From a bacterium (GTDB taxonomy: Bacteria > UBA8248 > JACPRG01 > G963555815): a stretch of DNA of 64,000 bases. Below are positions 21,461-31,524 of the stretch, one piece after another. The DNA is taken from the NCBI GenBank assembly GCA_963555815.3, contig CAUVWX020000001.1, forward strand, positions 192,001-256,000, in the 5' to 3' direction. Position 1 is the stretch's first letter. Each line of letters starts with the position of its first letter. Below the pieces are notes generated by a model that had not been told where the DNA came from, ran no database searches, and saw nothing but the letters and a program-made list of their open reading frames with translations. The translations under genes were made by a program, and so were the position numbers.

Positions 21461-21811
21461 TTATAGATTTCTGCGGGAGCGTCCTCGCTGCGGGCGGCTT
21501 CGCCTCTTTGGCCCCGGAGGACGCTGGCGGGTCTTTCGCTTGGCCTCCTCGGGTGGCCTGGCCCCCATCTCAACCTCTACCTTTCGGCGGATGGCGGCGT
21601 ACCTCAACGGCCCAATGACCGGAGAGATTCGGGTGAGGAGGCGTTCCGTCTCCTCAATCCCGCCCCGGTCTTCAAGCGGCAGAAAGAGGGTAAGAGCCCG
21701 CGTGAGGATCTCGGCGGCCGCGAGGAGGTCTTCTCTGTCCATGACCTCCTGACCGAAGGCCAGCAGCTCGCGGGCTTTTTTGAGAAGGTCTTCTTCAGCA
21801 GACGTAGCCAT
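21461..21811 (-). CDS. Hypothetical helical protein with basic C-terminal tail
   Basis: ATG-started ORF filling the gap between rluD and gcvT; amphipathic helices. Confidence 0.55.
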   Translation of the reverse strand: MATSAEEDLLKKARELLAFGQEVMDREDLLAAAEILTRALTLFLPLEDRGGIEETERLLTRISPVIGPLRYAAIRRKVEVEMGARPPEEAKRKTRQRPPGPKRRSRPQRGRSRRNL

Positions 21812-22014
21812 ACAGGAACTTCCTCATGGAATTTTTAAAGGCCTCGGCACGGAATCTCTCTACCCACCATTTTGCCGGAACCTCCTGAGAGGAGATAGCC
21901 CTTTTCCAAAAAACTCCAAATCCCTGGCTCATCTGGATCATATTTGAGATTGATGAGAGGATATCCTGATTTCATTCTGAGCGCAGTTGGCAAAACCCAT
22001 AAAGGAGCGGTGTT

Positions 22015-23265
22015 CTGAAGAAGACTGTCTTCCTCGACTGGCACAAAAAGGCCGGGGCCAAGGTGGTTGAATTTGGCGGGTGGGAGATGCCCCTCCAATA
22101 CGCCCCGGGGATCCTGTCGGAGCACCTGACAACGAGAAAGTGGGCGGGCATTTTTGATATCTCCCACATGGGGAGGTTCAGGATTCGGGGCCGGGACGCC
22201 CTCCCCTTTCTCCAGCATGTCCTCACGAACGACGCCGCTTCCCTCGAGCCAAACCGGGCTCAATACACCATGATCCCCAACGAAGATGGGGGGGCCATCG
22301 ACGACGTTTACCTGTATCGGTTCGGAGAGGAGGATTTCCGGCTGGTTGTCAACGCCGCCAACACAGAGAAGGATCTCCAGTGGCTGAGCGCCAGGAAGGG
22401 CGGATTTCGGGAGGTCGTCTTGGAGGATGAGACCGATCCAATCGCGATGTTTTCGTTTCAGGGCCCAAAATCCCGCCAGATCCTGGAAAGCGTCCTCAAT
22501 CGTGCCAAAGGGCGCCTTCCCGCTCAAAAGCGAAATCACTTTGAGACCCTGGAGATCGACGGTTCCCCTGTCACCGTCTCCTGTACAGGCTATACGGGCG
22601 AACCGATCGGCTTTGAGATCTTTAGTCCGTCGGCCTCTGCCGTCTCCCTCTGGCAAGAGATCCTGGAACGCGGTGAGCCTGAGGGGCTTTTACCGATAGG
22701 CCTTGGGGCGAGGGATACCCTGCGCTTGGAGGCCGGGTTTCCCCTCTACGGCCACGAATTGGGCCTGGACCCCCTAGGAAAAGTCATCCCCCTCTTTGCA
22801 CTCGCCCTCGCCCGGTTTGCCATCAGCTTTTCCCCTGATAAAGGGGACTTTGTGGGGCGAGACATCCTCGAGAGACAGCACCGTGAAACCGCTTTATGGC
22901 GCAAAGGCGAACTCTCGCTTCCACTCGAGGAGCGAGTCGTCCCGAAAAGAATTTTCCCGGTTGCCGTCACAGGGCGGGGTGTCGCCAGGCAGGGATACGA
23001 AATTTATCAGGGCGATACACTAAAAGGCCATGTCACCAGCGGGACCGTCGTCCCCTACTGGATATTTCAAGGAGATGTATCTACCTCCACTCCGGGGGAA
23101 GAAAAGGGGAAGCGGGCCATCGCTCTGGCTTACCTGGACAGCGACGTATCAGAGGGTCAGCCCTTGGTGGTCACCGATGGGCGGAGATCATTTGAGGGGG
23201 TGGTGGCAAAGGCCCCTCTCAAAACGAACGCTCCCCCCTATGCCAGACCCGTTCTCTACTCTTAA
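22015..23265 (+). CDS. gcvT: Glycine cleavage system aminomethyltransferase T; probable CTG start
   Basis: VEFGGWEMP, FDISHMG, NAAN, QGPKS, TGYTGE, GLGARDTLRLEAGFPLYGHE. The conserved N-terminus KKTVFLDWH lies upstream of track start 22063. Confidence 0.92.
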   Translation: MKKTVFLDWHKKAGAKVVEFGGWEMPLQYAPGILSEHLTTRKWAGIFDISHMGRFRIRGRDALPFLQHVLTNDAASLEPNRAQYTMIPNEDGGAIDDVYLYRFGEEDFRLVVNAANTEKDLQWLSARKGGFREVVLEDETDPIAMFSFQGPKSRQILESVLNRAKGRLPAQKRNHFETLEIDGSPVTVSCTGYTGEPIGFEIFSPSASAVSLWQEILERGEPEGLLPIGLGARDTLRLEAGFPLYGHELGLDPLGKVIPLFALALARFAISFSPDKGDFVGRDILERQHRETALWRKGELSLPLEERVVPKRIFPVAVTGRGVARQGYEIYQGDTLKGHVTSGTVVPYWIFQGDVSTSTPGEEKGKRAIALAYLDSDVSEGQPLVVTDGRRSFEGVVAKAPLKTNAPPYARPVLYS

Positions 23266-23280
23266 AAAGGCCTCTCTTGA

Positions 23281-24918
23281 TCACTGCAAGGGGTTTCGAT
23301 GGCGAACAGGCGGGCGGGCCTCCCCCGACCTGAAGTCGGGGGAAACCCCGAAGGGGTGGGCGTGGTCCGGGCTCTTTTTGGGGCCGCTGAACGAGGCCCC
23401 CGAGACCTCGTCCGGATCGACAATCCGGATCTGGCCGCCTTGACGGTGCTCATACTTCATGGCCGAGAGCTGGCCCACGAGGAGTTCCAGGTCCTTCCGA
23501 GGGAGTCCTTCTTCTGAAAGGGAGATCTCCCCCTCCTCAAAAGCCTTGCGAAGCCCCCAGAAGAGATCGGCCTTGAGGTTCGCGTAATACTCGGGCTCCG
23601 AGGAGGAGGCGCCAAGAAGGATGGGGAGGACCGAGACCCCCGCCTCTCGAAGGATGTCCGTCACGCCCCCTCCGACCCCGGTGTCATCCACGGCCACCAC
23701 GTCGGCCTTCCACTCCCGGGCGAGCCTCTTAGCCTCCCCCGCGGTCTGGGTCAGGCTCTGCCTCCTTCGCTGGCGGACGTGAAGGAGTTTTGCGCCTTCG
23801 ATGAGGGAGAAGACGGTGAGGTTTTTTCCGTAACGGGCCACGTCGACCCCAAGCGCCCTTCTTTTTCCTTCGTAGGCCTTGCCAGGGCCGATCTGGGCCG
23901 CCTCGATCCAGGAGAGGGGGATGAGGGTGTCCTCCCCCTCGTCCGGGAATTCGCCGAGGACCCGGGCCTGATAGATGGACGAGTCCTCGCCCCATTCGGC
24001 CTTCCGGGTCCTGACCCACGCCCTGGAGATCCGGGGGCAGATGGGCGTATTCGAGGGAATGGCCTTCCCGTTTTCCCACCGCCCAAGGCACGGGATATGA
24101 AAGGTCTTCCAAGTGGACCGGAGCTTTGTAAAAACTTTATAAAAATAGCCGTGGCGGGAGCCCGGCGTGCTGAGAAGGAGAAGCTTTGCCTCCTCGGTCA
24201 GGGCCCCCTGGATGGCGTCGAAGATCCCGTCCGAGACCCCCTTCGCCTCATCGATGATGTAGAGGAGATAAGGGGCGTGAAAGCCTTCCAGATTCTCGGG
24301 CCGGCCGGCCGAGATGCCGGCTGAAAACCACTCCTCCTCATAATCCCTCACCGCCATGCGGGTCTGGGAGAGGGTGAAAGAACCCTCAAGGGCGGAGCCC
24401 CGGACCCACCGGTGGATCTCGGCCCAAAAAACGTCCCGGACCTGTTTTTCGAAGGTCGGGGCCGTCGTGGGAACCTTTGACATGGGCCGGATCGCGAGGA
24501 ACCAGAGGTCGGCCCAGGCCCCCGTCGCCGTCTTCCCCGGTCCGTGGCCGCTTCGCACCGCCACGGCAGGATATTCGGCGATGGCCTCCAGGATGTCCGC
24601 CTGATAGGGCTCCGGCTTCGCCTTTAGAAAATCCTCAACGAAAGCAACGGGGTGATCGAAGTAGTGGGTGAACCCCTGAACCGCTTGATCGAGAAGAGCG
24701 GCGGTCTCGTTCGCTTCGGTTGAACTCTTGGCGAGTTCAAGATTCTTTTGAGCGTTCGTGGACGTTTTTGTCTGATGGGTCTTCTTTTCTGAGCTCTGCG
24801 GCGTGGATGGCGATCTGGGCGAGGTCCGAGATGGCCTCGGCCCCGATTTTTTCTTTTCCGGCCCACTTTTCGGCCAGGAAGATGAGATAGCGTGCTCGCT
24901 CCTTTTCCGGGATGTCAT
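23281..24918 (-). CDS. Phage terminase large subunit
   Basis: Walker A RSGHGPGKT, Walker B YIIDEAKGV, motif III LSTPG, RVLGEFP, nuclease motifs LGVDVARYG, VDDTGVGGGV and SPDH. Start uncertain (ATG 24918 or 24963). Confidence 0.88.
   Translation of the reverse strand: MTSRKRSEHAISSSWPKSGPEKKKSGPRPSRTSPRSPSTPQSSEKKTHQTKTSTNAQKNLELAKSSTEANETAALLDQAVQGFTHYFDHPVAFVEDFLKAKPEPYQADILEAIAEYPAVAVRSGHGPGKTATGAWADLWFLAIRPMSKVPTTAPTFEKQVRDVFWAEIHRWVRGSALEGSFTLSQTRMAVRDYEEEWFSAGISAGRPENLEGFHAPYLLYIIDEAKGVSDGIFDAIQGALTEEAKLLLLSTPGSRHGYFYKVFTKLRSTWKTFHIPCLGRWENGKAIPSNTPICPRISRAWVRTRKAEWGEDSSIYQARVLGEFPDEGEDTLIPLSWIEAAQIGPGKAYEGKRRALGVDVARYGKNLTVFSLIEGAKLLHVRQRRRQSLTQTAGEAKRLAREWKADVVAVDDTGVGGGVTDILREAGVSVLPILLGASSSEPEYYANLKADLFWGLRKAFEEGEISLSEEGLPRKDLELLVGQLSAMKYEHRQGGQIRIVDPDEVSGASFSGPKKSPDHAHPFGVSPDFRSGEARPPVRHRNPLQ
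23321..23356. repeat. GC-rich palindrome(s) in the 3' end of terL
   Basis: TCCCCCGAC-CTGAA-GTCGGGGGA (9-bp stem) followed by CCCC-GAA-GGGG. Confidence 0.6.
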
Positions 24919-25111
24919 CGGCTCCTGCCCGCTCGGCGATCTCGAGAAAGGCCCAGGGGCCATGGCCTTCGAGGAGTTTTTGGCTTTCAGAATTCGCTTT
25001 CGACATAGGTATTATGCGTTTTTTGACCGTGCGGGTCTTTGGTGCCGCCCGCACCCTCTTCTTTCCAGTGCTCACTCTTGCCAACGAAAGATCTCCCGGA
25101 GGCTTTTTCAA
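24737..25111 (-). CDS. Hypothetical protein, positional candidate for terminase small subunit
   Basis: Small helical protein directly upstream of and overlapping terL; alternative start ATG 25006. No diagnostic motif recognised. Confidence 0.5.
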   Translation of the reverse strand: MKKPPGDLSLARVSTGKKRVRAAPKTRTVKKRIIPMSKANSESQKLLEGHGPWAFLEIAERAGADDIPEKERARYLIFLAEKWAGKEKIGAEAISDLAQIAIHAAELRKEDPSDKNVHERSKES

Positions 25112-25217
25112 TCTCTTCGGCCTGTTGCTATGAATTCGGGGATGACAGGAGGCACAGAGGGTTTAAAATCAGGGGGTCAGTTTTCTCCGTTCAACGTTTT
25201 CCAAGAGGAGAGAAGAT

Positions 25218-25457
25218 ATGGATTCCCTGACGAAGACCGCCCTCTGGCTCATCGCCCTCGCCCTCTGGGGTTTGTTGCTGAGACCCCTTGTTCTCCCCAC
25301 GCCCCTTGGGGCCCAGGGGATGATGGACGTCAACATCGCCGCTATCAGCGGCAGCTCCATTTTGACGAACTCGCTCGACGTCAACATCAGAGAAGTGAGC
25401 GGCAACCGCATTGGGGGCTCGATCCCCGTGACCCAGCTCCCTGTGACCCAGGAATGA
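25218..25457 (+). CDS. Small membrane-anchored hypothetical protein (moron-like, opposite strand)
   Basis: GAGGAG RBS, N-terminal hydrophobic helix, internal DVNI repeat (GACGTCAACATC twice). Confidence 0.65.
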   Translation: MDSLTKTALWLIALALWGLLLRPLVLPTPLGAQGMMDVNIAAISGSSILTNSLDVNIREVSGNRIGGSIPVTQLPVTQE

Positions 25458-25545
25458 AAAGATTCTCAGCGGTCTTTAAAGAGGCAGATAACCAGAGGGT
25501 ATAGGAGCCCGGCATCCGCCTGTGTTTCAGCGGTCTGGAATTTTT

Positions 25546-26601
25546 TCAGCCAACCCTTGGGACGAGCTGAAGGCGCTCTCGTCTTCGAAGGCGTTTTTCA
25601 ATTTCCAGGGCAAGGCGATCGATGTCCCGGTCGCTCCTGATCTGGGCCCCATGGAAAGCCCCCCGCTCAAACCGGACCTGAAAGGGTCTGGATTGCCGCT
25701 CAAGCAGGCCCATCAGACGGTCCATGCGTCCCTCCAGGCCAAAATTCCTCGGCGCACCGAAGGAGTGCATCGGCTCTCTTAAATCCCCGGCGAAGGGGTT
25801 GAGCTCCCTTGGGACAATCGCCTCCCCCCGGTGAAGAAAGGCCAGCATGTCCTGCGGGACGAACGGCGTTCCCTGCTGGAAAAAGCCGCCGATGATGGGG
25901 ATCTTCTTCACAAACTTTGTGACAGGGTCCAGGAGTTTGTCGAGGAACGGGATACCGCCGCCTCCGCCTGACGCGAATGGCGCGGTCCCTGGACCCGCTC
26001 CACCCGTTCCCATGGCCGAGAGGACCTTTATCAGAAGTTTGATGGCCTCCGAGGTGGCGAACTTGATGACGGCCTTCAGCATGGCGTCCATGGCCTCCTG
26101 CCAGACGTCCTTCATGCTGTTGGTCCCCTTGATAAGGTCAAAGATGCCGTTGTTGATCTCCGTAAAGGTCCTTATGCCAACTAGCGCCATGCCCTCGTGG
26201 AGCTTGGCAAATTGACTCTCAAGACCCTTAACAAAGCCTCCCGTGGCATCCGTGAACTGGGACCACAGGAAGCTCTGTATCTGAAGACTGGTTGCGGTGG
26301 TCTCCTGGGCCTTCTGGAGGAAGGAGAGGTACTCCTGCTCTCTCTGGCACTCCAGGGTAATCTCATTCGTGAGCGTATCCAGGCGAAGCCTGGACTCTTC
26401 CTGGGCCTGAGTGAATGCGTCCCTGGAGGCTGTCTCAATCTGCCTGAACCCGGCGGTGAGCTCCGGGGTCATCCCCGAGAATTCCCGCCTGACCCCTTTC
26501 AGGCTGCGCCTAAACCCCAGGGACCCCTCCTGCAGATCCCGGAAGGCCGCCTTGGCAATCCCGGCGTCCGCCACGATATCAATCTGAATGCGGTTCGCCA
26601 C
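25546..26601 (-). CDS. Short tape-measure-like tail protein
   Basis: N-terminus RIQIDIVAD, helical core, and C-terminal FQQGTPFVPQDMLAFLHRGEAIVP typical of tape-measure C-termini; lies directly after the chaperone pair. Confidence 0.7.
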   Translation of the reverse strand: MANRIQIDIVADAGIAKAAFRDLQEGSLGFRRSLKGVRREFSGMTPELTAGFRQIETASRDAFTQAQEESRLRLDTLTNEITLECQREQEYLSFLQKAQETTATSLQIQSFLWSQFTDATGGFVKGLESQFAKLHEGMALVGIRTFTEINNGIFDLIKGTNSMKDVWQEAMDAMLKAVIKFATSEAIKLLIKVLSAMGTGGAGPGTAPFASGGGGGIPFLDKLLDPVTKFVKKIPIIGGFFQQGTPFVPQDMLAFLHRGEAIVPRELNPFAGDLREPMHSFGAPRNFGLEGRMDRLMGLLERQSRPFQVRFERGAFHGAQIRSDRDIDRLALEIEKRLRRRERLQLVPRVG

Positions 26602-26652
26602 CTCTTCTCCCCTGCGAATGCCACGATCGGATCAGGCCGAGTGTATGGATAT

Positions 26653-27021
26653 TCAGGAGACAAACTTTTGTTTGTGAGCGGCTTCCGTGAGCTCAGTTCT
26701 TTTTCGCCGCTCTGAGAGAAACCGGTGGATCTCCATAAGCCCACGAAGAAATTTCTGTGCCTCCTCCTCGGTCAACCGAAGGCTGAGAACGTCGAAGATG
26801 AGGTCGGGGGCCCACCCCAAGTCCCGGGCGAGGTCCGTCGAGAGAAGCTCATAGGCCTCAAGGGCCCTTCGGTCGGTGACGGACAGAGGCGGAAGTTGAA
26901 AGACCGGACAGCGGGGACAGTCCGGCTCAAAATCCACTTCTTCCTCTGAAAGTTCCTGGCAGTTGGCGCAGCTGACCCGGGGATAATCTAGCCGGACCCC
27001 GAGCCACCTTCGGAGTTTCCC
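26653..27021 (-). CDS. Tail assembly chaperone -1 frameshift extension (gpT-like) with two CxxC motifs
   Basis: Entered by a -1 slip at GGGAAAC; reads GKLRRWLGVRLDYPRVSCANC...CPRCP. Confidence 0.7.
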   Translation of the reverse strand, partial: GKLRRWLGVRLDYPRVSCANCQELSEEEVDFEPDCPRCPVFQLPPLSVTDRRALEAYELLSTDLARDLGWAPDLIFDVLSLRLTEEEAQKFLRGLMEIHRFLSERRKRTELTEAAHKQKFVS

Positions 27022-27368
27022 AAGGGGTTCTCCTCTTTGGATGAAACCCCCAGGAGACACCGGGAGACGACCCGGTTCAAGACAGAGGGCGGAAGAAGAA
27101 ATTTATAGGCCCGCTCACAGGGGATTTCCTCTTCCTCTTTCCCGACGACCCCTTTCCAGTCCACGATGCAGTGATCGATCCAGTCCTCCTCGACCCCCTT
27201 CTGGTCCACCTCCGGGGTCTGGACCCCGCCGGGCTGCCATCGCGTCTGGGTGTGGCGCGTCTCAATCTCCCGCATCACCCTGCGGCTCAGCCTGCGGCAG
27301 ATGAGGACACTCTCTTCAAAGGGGACCTCGAACTGCTCGTCCTCGTCGATGATCTGAAGCTTGCCCAT
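26988..27368 (-). CDS. Phage tail assembly chaperone (gpG-like)
   Basis: Acidic 126-aa protein with CIVDWKGV, ending NPLGN at a slippery heptamer; GGGGAGGA RBS; upstream of the tape-measure-like gene. Confidence 0.72.
   Translation of the reverse strand: MGKLQIIDEDEQFEVPFEESVLICRRLSRRVMREIETRHTQTRWQPGGVQTPEVDQKGVEEDWIDHCIVDWKGVVGKEEEEIPCERAYKFLLPPSVLNRVVSRCLLGVSSKEENPLGNSEGGSGSG
27015..27021 (-). other. Programmed -1 ribosomal frameshift site G GGA AAC
   Basis: X XXY YYZ heptamer in the correct phase near the end of the chaperone ORF; the -1 frame is open to 26653. Confidence 0.8.
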
Positions 27369-27398
27369 CCCGCTGTCCTCCCCCGATGTACCAGAGGC

Positions 27399-27424
27399 AA
27401 AAAGAAAGGGCCCCTTTCGGGCCC
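27399..27424 (-). terminator. Intrinsic terminator between the putative late promoter and the chaperone gene
   Basis: Minus strand reads GGGCCC-GAAAG-GGGCCC-TTTCTTTTT. Confidence 0.7.
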
Positions 27425-27442
27425 CCGGTCGCGTTTCATCGA

Positions 27443-27483
27443 ATCTAAGCTTAGATATATGTCATACACTTATGTTTTGTCAA
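27443..27483 (-). promoter_or_regulatory. Putative late promoter/operator
   Basis: TTGACA (27483-27478), AT-rich -10 region, perfect palindrome ATCTAAGCTTAGAT (27443-27456), and motifs shared with 28809-28844. Confidence 0.6.
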
Positions 27484-27920
27484 GGGCCTTTTTTGTAAGT
27501 CTCAGTGGAACAATTCATTAGCGGGAGCCAGGAGCCGTCGCGGGTGGCGCGGGGTCGAAGGCGGCGGCGGTGGAACTCGGCCTCCGTCTTGTCGGCCGCC
27601 CCCTGATAAAGGCGTTTCAGCGTCGAGTGGTGCCTTCGAAAGGAGCGTTCAAGAGAAGACCAGCTCCGTGGGGCCTCCCCCGGGACGGGGTGTCGGCCCC
27701 AGAGAATCTCGGACTCCAGGGGAGAGCAGATCACAGAGACGGCCCGCTGGACCTCTGCGCAAAAGAGGAGGGCCAGGGGCTCTCCCCGTCTCTTTCTGGG
27801 CGGACCCCCCAGGCGGGGATCAAGGGGCAGCGGGGGGGCGAACGCCACGTGCGATCTCTCCTCCCAGTAGCGATCAAAAATCGCTTCCAGATAGCCCTGC
27901 GCTTCTTCAAGACGTCTCAT
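27480..27920 (-). CDS. Hypothetical protein, possible late-gene regulator (C-terminal HTH-like)
   Basis: SPLESEILW...SWSSLERSFRRHHSTLKRLYQGA resembles a sigma70-region-4/RinA-type HTH; sits just upstream of the promoter and terminator. Confidence 0.5.
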   Translation of the reverse strand: MRRLEEAQGYLEAIFDRYWEERSHVAFAPPLPLDPRLGGPPRKRRGEPLALLFCAEVQRAVSVICSPLESEILWGRHPVPGEAPRSWSSLERSFRRHHSTLKRLYQGAADKTEAEFHRRRLRPRATRDGSWLPLMNCSTETYKKGP

Positions 27921-28161
27921 GGGGAAGCTCAGCTCCTCCCTCTGGCCCGGGGGAGCAGGGAATGTAAATTTTGAGAAGGGGCCCTTCCATATAAGTCGGA
28001 GGGGTCTCCGGTGAACGGCATTCAGCCCTTTCCCGCCGGGTCGGAGGCCGTCGGGTCGCCGAGTGGCCGTTCAGACAGAAAGGGACCTGATAGCTCCGTC
28101 CCCCGTCCCCGAGGACGAAGGTGGAACCGATGGGGGCCCCGCACCTCTGACACCGCTTCAT
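27907..28161 (-). CDS. Small zinc-ribbon protein
   Basis: CQRCG...FCLNGH; overlaps the next gene, as in a phage early operon. Confidence 0.5.
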   Translation of the reverse strand: MKRCQRCGAPIGSTFVLGDGGRSYQVPFCLNGHSATRRPPTRRERAECRSPETPPTYMEGPLLKIYIPCSPGPEGGAELPHETS

Positions 28162-28185
28162 GGCCAGCCCTTTCAGACTTCCAGC

Positions 28186-28738
28186 TCAATCGGTCTTCTG
28201 TGCCAGACCTCCATCCGCCGGACATGGCCCTCGAGACCGGCCAGATCTTCGCAGACTCCCCTCATAGGCCTCGCGGCCCACGCCAAAGAGGGCCGCCGCC
28301 TTCTTAAAGGCGTTCGTATAGGCGCCTTTCAGGGCGTCCGCCTTGAGCGAGGGAGGAATAGCCCCCGAAGGAGGACCGCTCGGCGATGGGCAAAAAGCCT
28401 CTTTGGCCAGGGTTTCCCACCTGAAGTTTCAGTCTCACCGTGGCCTCAAAGAGACATTTCCCCGCAGAGGTTTTCCGCTCATCGATCGAGATCACCTTGC
28501 CCCTCACCCGCCAGCGGGAAGGACCCAGAACCTCATTGAGACGATTGACGATGTACTGGTAGAAGAAGCCCACCGTGTCGTAGGGCCTCCCGGTCTCCGA
28601 AGCCTTCGTCCTTTCGATGGCCTCAGACGAAAGGGGCAGGGCCAACCTGCGGTAGGCCTTGTCCAAGAACTTTGCCGTGAGGGTCCCATTTGGGGAGACG
28701 ACCCTTCCCGATCTTCGCAGATTGCCGGTCTCAGCCAT
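28186..28738 (-). pseudogene. Rad52/Rad22 (Sak/DdrA-like) single-strand annealing protein with a 1-bp frameshift
   Basis: IVNRLNEVLGPSRW in the first frame; the conserved DALKGAYTNAFKKAAALFGVGREAY continues in another frame after ~28350. Confidence 0.75.
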
Positions 28739-28808
28739 TACCGTCTATCCTCCCAAGATGCCAGAAAAAAGCCCCAGAACCCCCGTTTCAAGTGGGGTGC
28801 GCTGGAAG

Positions 28809-28900
28809 GCTTAGATAAATATAAGTATAATACACTTATGTCAATAGGAAAATTAACATAAAAGCCACTTTATTTTGTCTAAGGACGTGCCTTATATTAA
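28809..28900. promoter_or_regulatory. AT-rich divergent promoter/operator region of the phage switch
   Basis: Between divergent repressor and recombinase genes; minus-strand TTGACA at 28844-28839; inverted repeat ATAAGT-N7-ACTTAT at 28821-28839. Confidence 0.65.
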
Positions 28901-28927
28901 GGGGCAAGAAAAGAGGGGGAGGGACTC

Positions 28928-29545
28928 TTGGAAGACTCGCTCGGCCAAAAGCTCCGAAATATCCGGGAAGCCCAGCGGATGAGCCAGGGAAGACTTGAGG
29001 AGCTCACTGGGATCGACCGGAACTACATCAGCCGCATCGAGAACGACCACGTCGAGCCCAAGGCCTCCACCCTCACCTCCATCTGCCGGGGCCTTGGGGT
29101 ATCCCCCTCGGTCCTCTGGGGAGACGAGGAATCTCCCGGGGAGGAGGGGAACACTCCTGTCGTGGGCCATGTCAGCGGGGGCGAATCAGAACACCTTTGG
29201 GGAGACGCGGACCTCCCGACGGGGGAAGGGTTCGTCCTCCTTCAAGATCCCTACTCCTCCCATGACCCGAACACCTTCGCCCTGGAGATCCGGGGGGACT
29301 CCATGTCGCCTAAGTTCGACCAGGGGGACCGGGTCATCGTCGCACCCGGGAAGGAGGCCCGAAGCGGCTGTCTCGCCGTCGTCCGGACAAAGGAGGGAAA
29401 GTCCTATTTCAAGCGGGTTTTCTTCCGGGGAAATGACGTCATCCTAGAGAGTTTTAATTCCGCCCACGGGCCCATCATTCTGAGGAAGCGGGACATTCAC
29501 TTCGCCTACCCCGTCATCTGCATCATCCCGCGGGACGCCTCCTGA
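28928..29545 (+). CDS. CI-like repressor (XRE HTH plus S24 peptidase)
   Basis: LRNIREAQRMSQGRLEELTGIDRNYISRIEN HTH; GDSM catalytic Ser; FKRV catalytic Lys. Confidence 0.9.
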   Translation: MEDSLGQKLRNIREAQRMSQGRLEELTGIDRNYISRIENDHVEPKASTLTSICRGLGVSPSVLWGDEESPGEEGNTPVVGHVSGGESEHLWGDADLPTGEGFVLLQDPYSSHDPNTFALEIRGDSMSPKFDQGDRVIVAPGKEARSGCLAVVRTKEGKSYFKRVFFRGNDVILESFNSAHGPIILRKRDIHFAYPVICIIPRDAS

Positions 29546-29557
29546 AAGGTCATTCCC

Positions 29558-30004
29558 TTAAGCGCTCTCCGACCCGATCCCCCGGATTCGCGACCAGATC
29601 CCGTACACGAAGAGAAAGACCCCCAGGGCCTGAGCCACCCCGGAAAGGGCCAGGAGCCCCCCCACAAATCCGCCTCCTCCGCCTACGGCGAAGGGTTCCA
29701 CAAGGACCCTCAGAACGAGTCCTCCCACGACCAGCCCGTAGTTCCAGGAAGCCAGGACCGGGTCATAACGGCGTTTCCCCTCAGGAAAGCGCCCCTTGGC
29801 GAGAGGAAACATCCAATAGGCCACGCCCATCACCATGAGGCTCAGCCATCCGACCAGAGCCACATGGGTATGGGAAATTATGAAATGACGAGGGAGGAAT
29901 CCCCCTCCAAATCCCTGGTGAAGGAGGAAAGCTGCCCCGGATAGGAAGGTGAGAAGGAAAAATATCAAACTCGTCTTAATGAAAAGTCGTGAAAGGCTCG
30001 GCAT
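29558..30004 (-). CDS. Four-TM membrane protein (cytochrome oxidase subunit I-like fragment family)
   Basis: HTHVALVGWLSLMVMGVAYWMFP motif and four hydrophobic segments; AGGAGG upstream of ATG 30004. Confidence 0.6.
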   Translation of the reverse strand: MPSLSRLFIKTSLIFFLLTFLSGAAFLLHQGFGGGFLPRHFIISHTHVALVGWLSLMVMGVAYWMFPLAKGRFPEGKRRYDPVLASWNYGLVVGGLVLRVLVEPFAVGGGGGFVGGLLALSGVAQALGVFLFVYGIWSRIRGIGSESA

Positions 30005-30139
30005 TTCTTTTCTCCTCCTGCTGACAGGTAACTCCGTTTTGGCAGTCCCCAACCTGCCTCTTGACAAACGCGCCTCACTCCGTTACCCAACAGATCCCCC
30101 TCCTTCTTTCGGGGTTCTCCTCTCGGTGGGTAAAAGAAG

Positions 30140-31495
30140 GTGACCATCGATCTTGTCATTCGAAATGGAACCATCGTCACGCCAGAGTTGACCCATCAAG
30201 CCGCCATCGGGGTGAATGGGGGCCTCATCGTGGCCATCGGCGAAGAGGGCCGAATGCCCGAGGGAAAGGCCACTCTGGACGCCAGCGAACTTCACGTCCT
30301 CCCGGGGCTCATCGACGCCCACGTTCACTTCCGAGAGCCCGGCCTCGAATATAAGGAGGATTTCTCCACCGGGAGCACGGCCGCCGCCTGCGGGGGCATT
30401 ACCACCGTGGTTGACATGCCCAACACCATCCCGCCAACGGCCGACGTGGACAGTTTCCTCCTGAAGAAAAAGCTCGGGGAGCAAAAATCGTTCGTCGATT
30501 TCGCCCTCCTCGCCGTCATCCTCCAGACCAACCTCAACCACCTCATCCCTCTCTACCAGGCCGGCGTCATCGGTTTCAAAGTTTTTCTAGCGGAGACGGT
30601 CGGAAACCTCCCCCCGCCCGATGACAGGACCCTTCAGGAGGCCTTTCGCATCATCGCCGGGACAGGCCGCCGGACGGGGATCCACGGGGAATCCTGGTCC
30701 ATCGTAAACCGCCTCATGACAAAACTCCAAAAGGAAGGCCGAAAGGACTCCTTGGCCCACGTGGAGAGCCGCCCCCCCGCCGCCGCCCTTGAGGCCGTCA
30801 ACCGCGCCATTCGCTACGCACGGGAAGCCGGCATGAAACTTCACGACTTCCATGAAGGGTGTAAGGAGGTCATCGATCTCATCCGGGAGCACAAAAAGAG
30901 CGCGGATGTGACCTGCGAGACGGCGCCCCACTATCTCCTCCTGGCGGCGGAGGACATGGAAGGACTCGGCAATCTTCTTCGGATCAACCCTCCCATTCGC
31001 CATCGCGGACACCAGGAGGCCCTTTGGGAGGGTTTGAGAGACGGGACCATTGACCTGATCGCCACGGACCACTCCCCTCACACGTCCGAGGAGAAATCCA
31101 GGGAGAACATCTGGGACACCCCGCCCGGATTTCCGGGTGTCGAGACCAACGTTCCCCTCATGCTGACCCAGGTTAACGCGGGCAAGCTCACCCTCAACGA
31201 ATACGTCCGCCTCGCCTCTGAGCGGCCCGCCCAGGTGTGGCAGATGTACCCCCAAAAGGGCAACATCGCCATCGGCGCCGATGGCGACTTCACCATCGTG
31301 GATTTGAACCAACAAAAAACCCTTCGCGCCAAAAATCTTCACTCCAAGAGCAAGATCACACCCTTTGACGGATGGAAGGTCAAGGGGATGCCCCGATACA
31401 CCGTCGTTCGAGGAAATGTTGTGATGAAAGACGGGGAGATCGTCGGGCCTCCGCGGGGCCGCTGTGTCCATCCGGCGGACCACCGAGGCGATTAG
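30140..31495 (+). CDS. Cyclic amidohydrolase (dihydroorotase/allantoinase family)
   Basis: PGLIDAHVHFREPG, DMPNT, ETAPHYL, NPPIR, ATDHSPH, GADGDF. Confidence 0.88.
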   Translation: MTIDLVIRNGTIVTPELTHQAAIGVNGGLIVAIGEEGRMPEGKATLDASELHVLPGLIDAHVHFREPGLEYKEDFSTGSTAAACGGITTVVDMPNTIPPTADVDSFLLKKKLGEQKSFVDFALLAVILQTNLNHLIPLYQAGVIGFKVFLAETVGNLPPPDDRTLQEAFRIIAGTGRRTGIHGESWSIVNRLMTKLQKEGRKDSLAHVESRPPAAALEAVNRAIRYAREAGMKLHDFHEGCKEVIDLIREHKKSADVTCETAPHYLLLAAEDMEGLGNLLRINPPIRHRGHQEALWEGLRDGTIDLIATDHSPHTSEEKSRENIWDTPPGFPGVETNVPLMLTQVNAGKLTLNEYVRLASERPAQVWQMYPQKGNIAIGADGDFTIVDLNQQKTLRAKNLHSKSKITPFDGWKVKGMPRYTVVRGNVVMKDGEIVGPPRGRCVHPADHRGD

Positions 31496-31524
31496 GAAAC
31501 GTCAGAGGATAGCAATCAGAAATC

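Follow-up and report, generated by a model that had tools for sequence, protein, structure and literature searches.

A phage-derived module beside gcvT is probably the decaying stump of a domesticated head-tail gene cluster

In the genome of an uncultured bacterium (assembly GCA_963555815.3), a module of ten phage-derived genes sits between gcvT and a small host gene, within a 64,000-nucleotide stretch of contig CAUVWX020000001.1 (positions 192,001 to 256,000) that we call the window. Genes for a Rad52-like protein, a Zn-ribbon-like protein, a regulator, the tail assembly chaperones G and T, a tape measure protein and the putative small and large terminase subunits (TerS and TerL) lie on the minus strand, with a CI-like repressor gene diverging from them on the plus strand and a 79-aa membrane open reading frame (ORF) inverted between the tape measure and TerS genes. 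We conclude that the module is probably the promoter-proximal, decaying stump of a host-domesticated head-tail cluster resembling a gene transfer agent (GTA), and not a satellite. As judged from genome comparison, this cluster was likely rearranged long ago and is now being lost strain by strain in a genus with 2.1-Mb genomes.

Gene content and selection at the gcvT locus

Between the source genome (G000) and that of a sister species (G001), the module has been under purifying selection comparable to that on host genes. Pairwise dN/dS (Nei-Gojobori with transition weighting), pooled over 1360 codons, was 0.26 for the module, compared to a host median of 0.27 for 231 genes, the intact members of 247 orthologues after 16 with apparent disruptions had been dropped; these host genes were sampled from 20 stretches of a single G001 contig (about 0.4 of 2.1 Mb). 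An initial annotation of the window, made from sequence alone, had taken the genes to be under selection, and the ratios for TerL (P 3e-18, ATPase and nuclease domains alike), both chaperone frames and the C-part of the tape measure bear this out, none of them being near 1 (Table 1). Ratios not different from 1 were obtained for the Zn-ribbon-like gene (64 codons), the membrane ORF and the TerS core, the last being an estimate with low dS in a gene that the TerL frame overlaps. TerL is 58% identical to its homologues in two other relatives, G002 and G006, for which host-gene medians are 56% (n=18) and 57% (n=10).

The junctions of the module are real. Window positions 21500-31500 lie in a single contig in each of two assemblies of sequencing runs from two other studies (X6 and X7; the prefix X denotes such assemblies), with 47-48 differences, which rules out an assembly artefact, and X3, perhaps the run from which the window derives, equals it letter for letter over 21500-28839. 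The host gene directly abuts CI, and gcvT directly abuts TerL. Every ORF of the initial annotation was found at its place and in its order; the membrane ORF had been overlooked, and the tape measure, described as a miniature, is not specially short (351 aa, against 442 aa for the G002 homologue).

A six-frame search of the whole 2.08-Mb source assembly (two contigs, 95.7% complete) with profiles made from relatives gave no match for portal, capsid, neck, tube, tail-tip, fibre, holin or transposase genes; 33 of the 34 profiles were blank and the remaining one matched host amidases. The lack of portal, capsid and tail-tube genes first noticed in the module thus extends to the entire assembly, and orphan head or tail loci, searched for elsewhere in it, were not found. 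Neither an integrase nor a primase/replicase was matched among the module ORFs (Pfam, PHROGs), and no flanking direct repeat was present among the 20 largest repeat families shown. The module does not contain the set of integration, replication, head, tail and lysis modules that marks an intact temperate phage.

Relatives, and probable rearrangement and decay of the cluster

Sought at the gcvT locus of relatives, the module was found in G001 at the same site and in the same order, about 92% identical and with an intact Rad52 gene, but with about 700 bp extra after T and a non-homologous tape-measure N-part. This extra stretch (L011:7496-8252), which lies between T and the tape measure and is not in the window, contains a 118-aa ORF on the opposite strand with no family match. 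TerL homologues occur in five of 41 genomes and regulator homologues in five of the 51 genomes of the phylum, in each case G000, G001, G002, G006 and G025. Regulator and G homologues at 71% and 80-82% identity exist in further lineages, the 71% regulator and the 82% G each on an ENA contig of 1,571 nt, presumably one and the same.

In G002, CI is followed by a 50-aa gene, a 301-aa gene, the Zn-ribbon-like gene, the regulator, a promoter, a hairpin, TerS, TerL and a portal gene. G006 has the same order, and its cluster runs on past TerL with genes for portal, capsid, neck and tube, two tail genes, the chaperones G and T, a tape-measure region containing membrane ORFs and repeats of N-terminal pieces, and genes for tail tip and fibre. 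Among the internal and flanking ORFs of this cluster we recognised neither an integrase nor a transposase or replicase. In these two genomes, which represent two genera, CI adjoins the same rhodanese gene pair, with a restriction island between them in G006. The shared block order and rhodanese flank support the interpretation of the window module as a stump of such a cluster. The Rad52-like gene of the window takes the place of the unrelated 301-aa gene, and the putative TerS is 32-36% identical to the genes before TerL in G002 and G006.

A TTGAC promoter followed by a GC hairpin and a U-run stands 5' of TerS in G002, G006 and G025, and 5' of G in the window, where the TTGACA hexamer overlaps the stop codon of the regulator gene and the hairpin and U-run then precede G. 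We therefore infer that the block of G, T and tape measure was relocated to a position behind the late promoter, which feeds the chaperone directly, as the initial annotation had stated; its further point, that simple deletion from a canonical phage cannot yield this order, also holds. G006 provides a precedent: measured against L145, a lambdoid viral contig with the same morphogenesis genes in canonical order, it has undergone another block move. The hairpins of G002 and G006 fold better than shuffles (z about -3); those before G and TerS in the window do no better than shuffles (z -0.5, 0.8).

The slippery heptamer GGGAAAC (27015-27021) lies in the correct frame for -1 slippage, and a heptamer of this form near the 3' end of G is kept in 5/5 close homologues and in 0/2 genes of family f2 (see below), so the frameshift site noted initially stands. 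The tape measure is a mosaic, with a C-part common to G001, a middle nearest to a Mu-like prophage of G001 and a G002-like N-terminus.

Searched with Foldseek, the predicted structure of the regulator (pLDDT 77) gave sigma70 region 4 in the top rows (probability 0.99, E about 0.8) and no match at E under 0.001, and the G025 homologue matches Sigma70_r4 at E 0.0018. Among 1.84 billion proteins the family has three strong representatives, none of them in viral contigs, and a search of metagenomes gave a single locus that was spurious. From its position, and by analogy with lambda Q and with GafZ (PMC11150451), the regulator is predicted to be a late activator or antiterminator. An 11-mer that occurs exactly twice in G000, in the divergent control region and at the late promoter, may be an operator; it is not exactly conserved at both promoters in G001, so that CI is at most a candidate for direct control of the late promoter. 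In the ancestor, RecA-triggered self-cleavage of CI would have switched on the regulator, which would have let transcription through the hairpins before each late block; particles would have been built, and TerS and TerL would have packaged host DNA.

Several observations point to decay, and TerL is at the centre of them. It matches phrog_2 at 6e-34 and its catalytic motifs are all present, as the initial annotation had recorded, but it is not intact: the ancestral start codon and the last conserved helix are lost, the native sequence ending right after the last catalytic motif. The in-frame ATGs all lie inside TerS (24737-24963). From those ATGs TerS and TerL overlap by 75-90 aa, open in both species, and synonymous divergence of TerS is low in the overlap (0.05), as with dual coding. 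The predicted TerL model has a pLDDT under 50 at the C-terminus, too poor to judge the clipped helix, and a TerL tree leaves the window copy unplaced (support 50).

The 14-nt repeat at the junction occurs three times in G000. At its two mismatched positions the window reads like the copy on the host side and G001 like the copy in TerL, as also seen in the TerL of the Mu-like prophage. An ENA contig of 80,079 nt that resembles G001 still has the complete ancestral C-terminus of TerL, albeit with a 33-aa deletion and a split gene. On these grounds we infer that both clades held longer alleles after their split and lost the distal part independently, through two apparently independent deletions at one repeat by the TerL end. 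In addition, a 6,123-nt deletion in strain X15 extends from the CI leader as far as the first base of the repeat, so that CI is the sole module gene remaining. X15 has several indels in common with the window, retains 27 further nt at the junction that were found in 0/5 genomes searched, and differs from G001 at two positions in a 44-nt piece, the same count as the window. The TerL gene of G001 has two frameshifts; X20 has them as well, but it is letter-identical to G001 and hence was not counted as independent. In two strains of the same species as G000, on 2.13- and 2.15-Mb contigs, Rad52 and the tape measure are intact, but TerL has Glu in place of Gly after Walker A and Val in place of Ala at a nuclease position that is otherwise invariant.

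The Rad52 frameshift, on which the initial annotation had based its case for decay, is present in the window strain but is strain-specific, being absent from X5, X6 and X7, and the 183-aa form is found on three further contigs; the intact copy of the sister species matches Rad52_Rad22 at 1.6e-7. Likewise, the window's second 1-nt indel (27968, near the end of the Zn-ribbon-like gene) is missing from the same three assemblies.

The history would then have run as follows. First, the block of G, T and tape measure came to lie between the late promoter and TerS. Purifying selection then acted for most of the time since the two species split. Finally, one short repeat mediated at least two deletions of the part beyond the last helix of TerL, and lesions are now gathering in the orphaned genes. 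Today the module would build no particle and is predicted to confer at most repressor-based immunity.

Table 1. Features of the module (dN/dS from G000 against G001)
Feature	Coordinates	Strand	dN/dS	Remarks
CI-like repressor	28928..29545	+	0.14	HTH_3 and Peptidase_S24; Ser/Lys dyad motifs present
Divergent control region	28739..28927	.		TTGACA at 28844-28839 on minus strand, then 11-mer
Rad52/Sak-like annealing gene	28186..28738	-	0.34 and 0.07	Broken by 1-nt insertion at 28348 in window strain
Small Cys/His Zn-ribbon-like gene	27907..28161	-	0.94	MKRC...FCLNGHS motif, also 5' of regulator in G002 and G006
Sigma70-region-4-like regulator	27480..27920	-	0.30	Predicted late activator/antiterminator
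Late promoter and intrinsic-terminator-like hairpin	27406..27483	-		TTGACA 27483-27478; hairpin 27426-27406
Tail assembly chaperone G	26988..27368	-	0.24	Slippery heptamer GGGAAAC
T frame of predicted -1 frameshift product GT	26653..27018	-	0.28	
Tape measure protein, 351 aa	25546..26601	-	0.16 (C-part)	Weak matches to four tape-measure PHROGs
79-aa membrane protein	25218..25457	+	0.58	Homologues beside tape-measure genes in G002, G014 and G032
Putative small terminase, 115 aa from TTG 25084	24737..25084	-	0.93 (core)	Assigned by position only
Large terminase TerL	23281..24963	-	0.18	Walker A/B, coupling motif, nuclease aspartates; native sequence ends near 23347
Deletion junction	23347..23360	-		Imperfect 14-nt repeat common to TerL 3' end and hairpin downstream of gcvT

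The Mu-like prophage of G001 is roughly 30 kb long and its site is empty in G000. It encodes a transposase, B ATPase, Gam, an amidase, TerL, a portal, a protease-capsid fusion, a tube, G/T and a tape measure, with identities to the window of 61% for TerL, 37% for G and 51% for the C-half of the tape measure; the portal, capsid and tube matches of G001 all fall inside it. The prophage (L012:3100 to L013:18770) has a lambdoid-type tail, and its transposase and two tail genes appear split. We considered a nested Mu-like prophage as the source of the block of G, T and tape measure and rejected it: the Mu and G006 copies of G and T are at equal distances from those of the window, the Mu likeness is confined to the middle of the tape measure, no Mu-end match was seen, and the G002 tape-measure homologue adjoins the same membrane gene.

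A homologue of the 79-aa membrane protein also lies at the right end of the Mu-like prophage, and a role in superinfection exclusion is a guess. Atlas searches with this protein and with TerS returned only unnamed clusters. Tape-measure regions of relatives consist of repeated cassettes, a small membrane gene and then a tape-measure N-terminal piece, present four times in G014 (L054:3290-6881) and also seen in G032 (L060:7047-10147), G006 (L017:10232-15520) and G002 (L317); they look like variable tape-measure/exclusion pairs.

An orphan Mu-type repressor, 43% identical to that of the G001 Mu-like prophage, is present at an orthologous site in both species (G000 C1:1256291-1256749, L330; G001 C2:16896-17354, L331) and is possibly a second kept repressor that gives immunity. 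G001 contains a second, podovirus-like prophage by tRNA-Leu (C6:843-860 kb, L345), absent from G000, which has fibre and chaperone genes in common with the Mu-like prophage. At a contig end by tRNA-Ser in G000 (C1:1411510-1418795) lies an integrative element with HTH, ParB-methylase and both small and large terminase-like ORFs and a serine recombinase, as labelled from reading the sequences. G000 also has a 6.3-kb duplication (C1:688712-695006 and 1393301-1399596), 99% identical, each copy of which starts at tRNA-Ser.

Competing explanations

Selection might instead act on the reduced module itself: once induced, it would provide TerS, TerL, the chaperones and a short tape measure, and these would either poison the assembly of the related Mu-like phage or package host DNA in heads and tubes borrowed from it. 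Host-level dN/dS in TerL, G, T and the tape measure speaks for such a role, as do the sister species' prophage of the same morphogenesis family, to which the tape-measure middle is nearest, the possibly old gene order (given the regulator and G homologues on 1,571-nt contigs) and a mildly raised dS from gcvT to pyrC (up to 0.28, against about 0.11 in the flanks). We nevertheless regard it as unlikely, if far from negligible: two lineages have an independently broken TerL and two a clipped one, X15 has lost the module, a nuclease domain constrained like the ATPase fits a working enzyme and not a decoy, and G000 has no helper prophage of the Mu-like family. A PADLOC 2.0 scan of the module gave no relevant defence match, only generic HTH models and one weak ZorA2 match. 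If interference were its role, the module would act on the same assembly step as Tab (PMC10884400) and Tai (PMC11364771), which, by the descriptions in the accessible parts of those papers, are dedicated inhibitor proteins, whereas the module consists of kept chaperone, tape-measure and terminase genes.

It is less probable still that the module is just a prophage that became defective long ago and spread to fixation by drift in the ancestor of the family, the traces of selection then being due to repressor immunity or phage function and not to host gene transfer. The layout of CI, Rad52 and late regulator is lambdoid, the morphogenesis genes are found in L145 and in the Mu-like prophage as well, and module queries had no match in three of the six other genomes of the family. 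Set against this, the full-length genes of G002 and G006 have dN well under dS (0.14-0.46 and 0.7-0.9, respectively), with a shared site and no integrase or replicase, and incomplete prophages are reported to lose terminase and portal preferentially (PMC7744054). The decayed prophage offered as an alternative in the initial annotation was largely right about decay, which is seen in the recurrent TerL damage and the deletions across strains.

Two further proposals of the initial annotation fare worse. For a mobile satellite that packages itself in helper particles, the small size, the own repressor, TerS and TerL and an available helper family would be suitable, but the module has no integrase, primase/replicase or flanking direct repeat and no close relative in viral contigs, and it occupies the same site in both species at host-like divergence; we consider this very improbable. 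Phage-inducible chromosomal islands (PICIs) and their capsid-forming type (cf-PICIs) are small, repressor-controlled satellites that may carry terminase subunits; the module differs in its fixed site and in having no integrase, replication genes or att sites. Equally remote is one locus of a complete multi-locus GTA with the remainder in assembly gaps: the f2 system is indeed split over four loci and G000 is incomplete, but the blank profiles leave no head or tail-shell gene anywhere in the assembly, and the portal, capsid and tube of G001 belong to its prophage. A GTA-like origin, by contrast, fits.

The stump interpretation has its own difficulties. No module reading frame is broken in X5, X6 or X7, and apparent disruptions between the two genomes affect 16/247 and 26/269 orthologues, which puts single frameshifts near background. 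If the lost distal part was only about 150 nt, the head and tube genes had gone while TerL, the chaperones and the tape measure were still under selection, and a role in interference, or one that depends on a helper, would become more likely. In G006, host genes and insertion sequence remnants take up 12 kb between the regulator and TerS, and two queries for lysis genes found neither endolysin nor holin in the G002/G006 cluster. Finally, exchange with live phages continues, because the capsid of the Mu-like prophage is sister to the G002/G006 capsids.

A wider candidate particle system in the phylum

The G006 capsid has matches in 37/51 genomes of the class; in the sampling used, this class makes up the entire phylum (uncultured, Nitrospinota-labelled). 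In family f2, a capsid is present in 33/42 genomes, a split lambda-gpA-type terminase in 34/42, a tail tip in 32/42 and a protein matching Pfam GTA_holin_3TM in 21/42, mostly once per genome, with 0/4 in the small genomes of genus g5. A Mu-transposase query gave a weak match in one of the 42. The f2 particle classes are those of G006, plus holin and lysozyme, and median pairwise dN/dS was 0.21 for the capsid, 0.29 for the terminase and 0.46 for the tail tip. In the single-contig genome G011 these genes lie in four loci whose host neighbours are conserved in G021 and G009. We consider it fairly likely, from gene content and constraint, that the f2 system is a working GTA-like particle.

The f2 loci (L047-L049 and L347 in G011; L050-L051, L300 and L348 in G021) comprise a lysozyme-holin-110aa-TerS locus (Mu gp27-like TerS), a split terminase and portal beside amt/yajQ, a capsid-to-tube-G locus beside F420 genes, and tail tip and tape measure elsewhere. 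The f2 TerL consists of two overlapping genes across genera, a 352-aa ATPase with a Zn ribbon and a nuclease of about 213 aa (L049:5805-7501, L050:10860-12562, L289, L291).

In a midpoint-rooted capsid tree of 167 sequences (those below 380 aa and duplicates dropped), the 21 f2 sequences formed one long-branch clade (support 1.0) and genus g7 another (0.98). G002 and G006 were sisters and grouped with the Mu-like prophage, G025 and two viral contigs (0.997), apart from f2. The capsid phage family has 212 confirmed stretches in genomes and 379 in viral contigs. The tree suggests that this widespread family was domesticated twice, as the four-locus system of f2 and as the CI/sigma4-controlled cluster in f1/f3. 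That the phylum twice domesticated this morphogenesis family into undescribed GTAs, with the window subset being a further selected stage that parasitises or blocks a Mu-like phage, we think doubtful. No description of the f2 or f1/f3 clusters was found in the literature searched; supplements of large GTA/provirus surveys could list them.

Of the six GTA features in the accessible part of PMC9662315, two are seen in the relatives: particle proteins derived from caudoviruses (in G006 and f2), and an endogenised, often multi-locus organisation without replication or excision genes. The window module lacks the first, since searches of G000 for portal, capsid, neck, tube and tip genes were blank. 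As far as that source describes them, RcGTA, BaGTA and VSH-1 are likewise caudoviricete-derived and endogenised and, as may also be the case here, vertically inherited, the multi-locus organisation being shared with f2, but the relatives' system appears independently derived, from a family that circulates in lambdoid and Mu-like forms. In the Caulobacter crescentus GTA (RogA-GafYZ; accessible part of PMC11150451), a repressor also silences an activator/antiterminator operon, and a head-tail cluster without self-replication is driven through a promoter and terminators. We liken the two by control layout only. The capsid family differs (protease-capsid fusion), and the system studied here has its repressor and regulator beside the cluster together with a Rad52-like gene, while particle genes are missing from the window copy. 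The GTA clusters of reduced-genome endosymbionts (accessible part of PMC9254644) are similarly GTA gene subsets under purifying selection in small genomes, but they keep head and portal and lose tails, whereas the window keeps terminase, chaperones and tape measure without head or tube.

Taken together, the window module, though probably a dying remnant, is unusually well resolved: it would record an old rearrangement, a long period of purifying selection and then several rounds of collapse at a single short repeat that spared the repressor. The relatives add candidate GTA systems outside the few known GTA lineages, with a close live phage relative in a sister genome. With these systems, comparative genomics and virome transductomics could be used to test by what route phages turn into GTAs and for what reasons small genomes retain or lose them.

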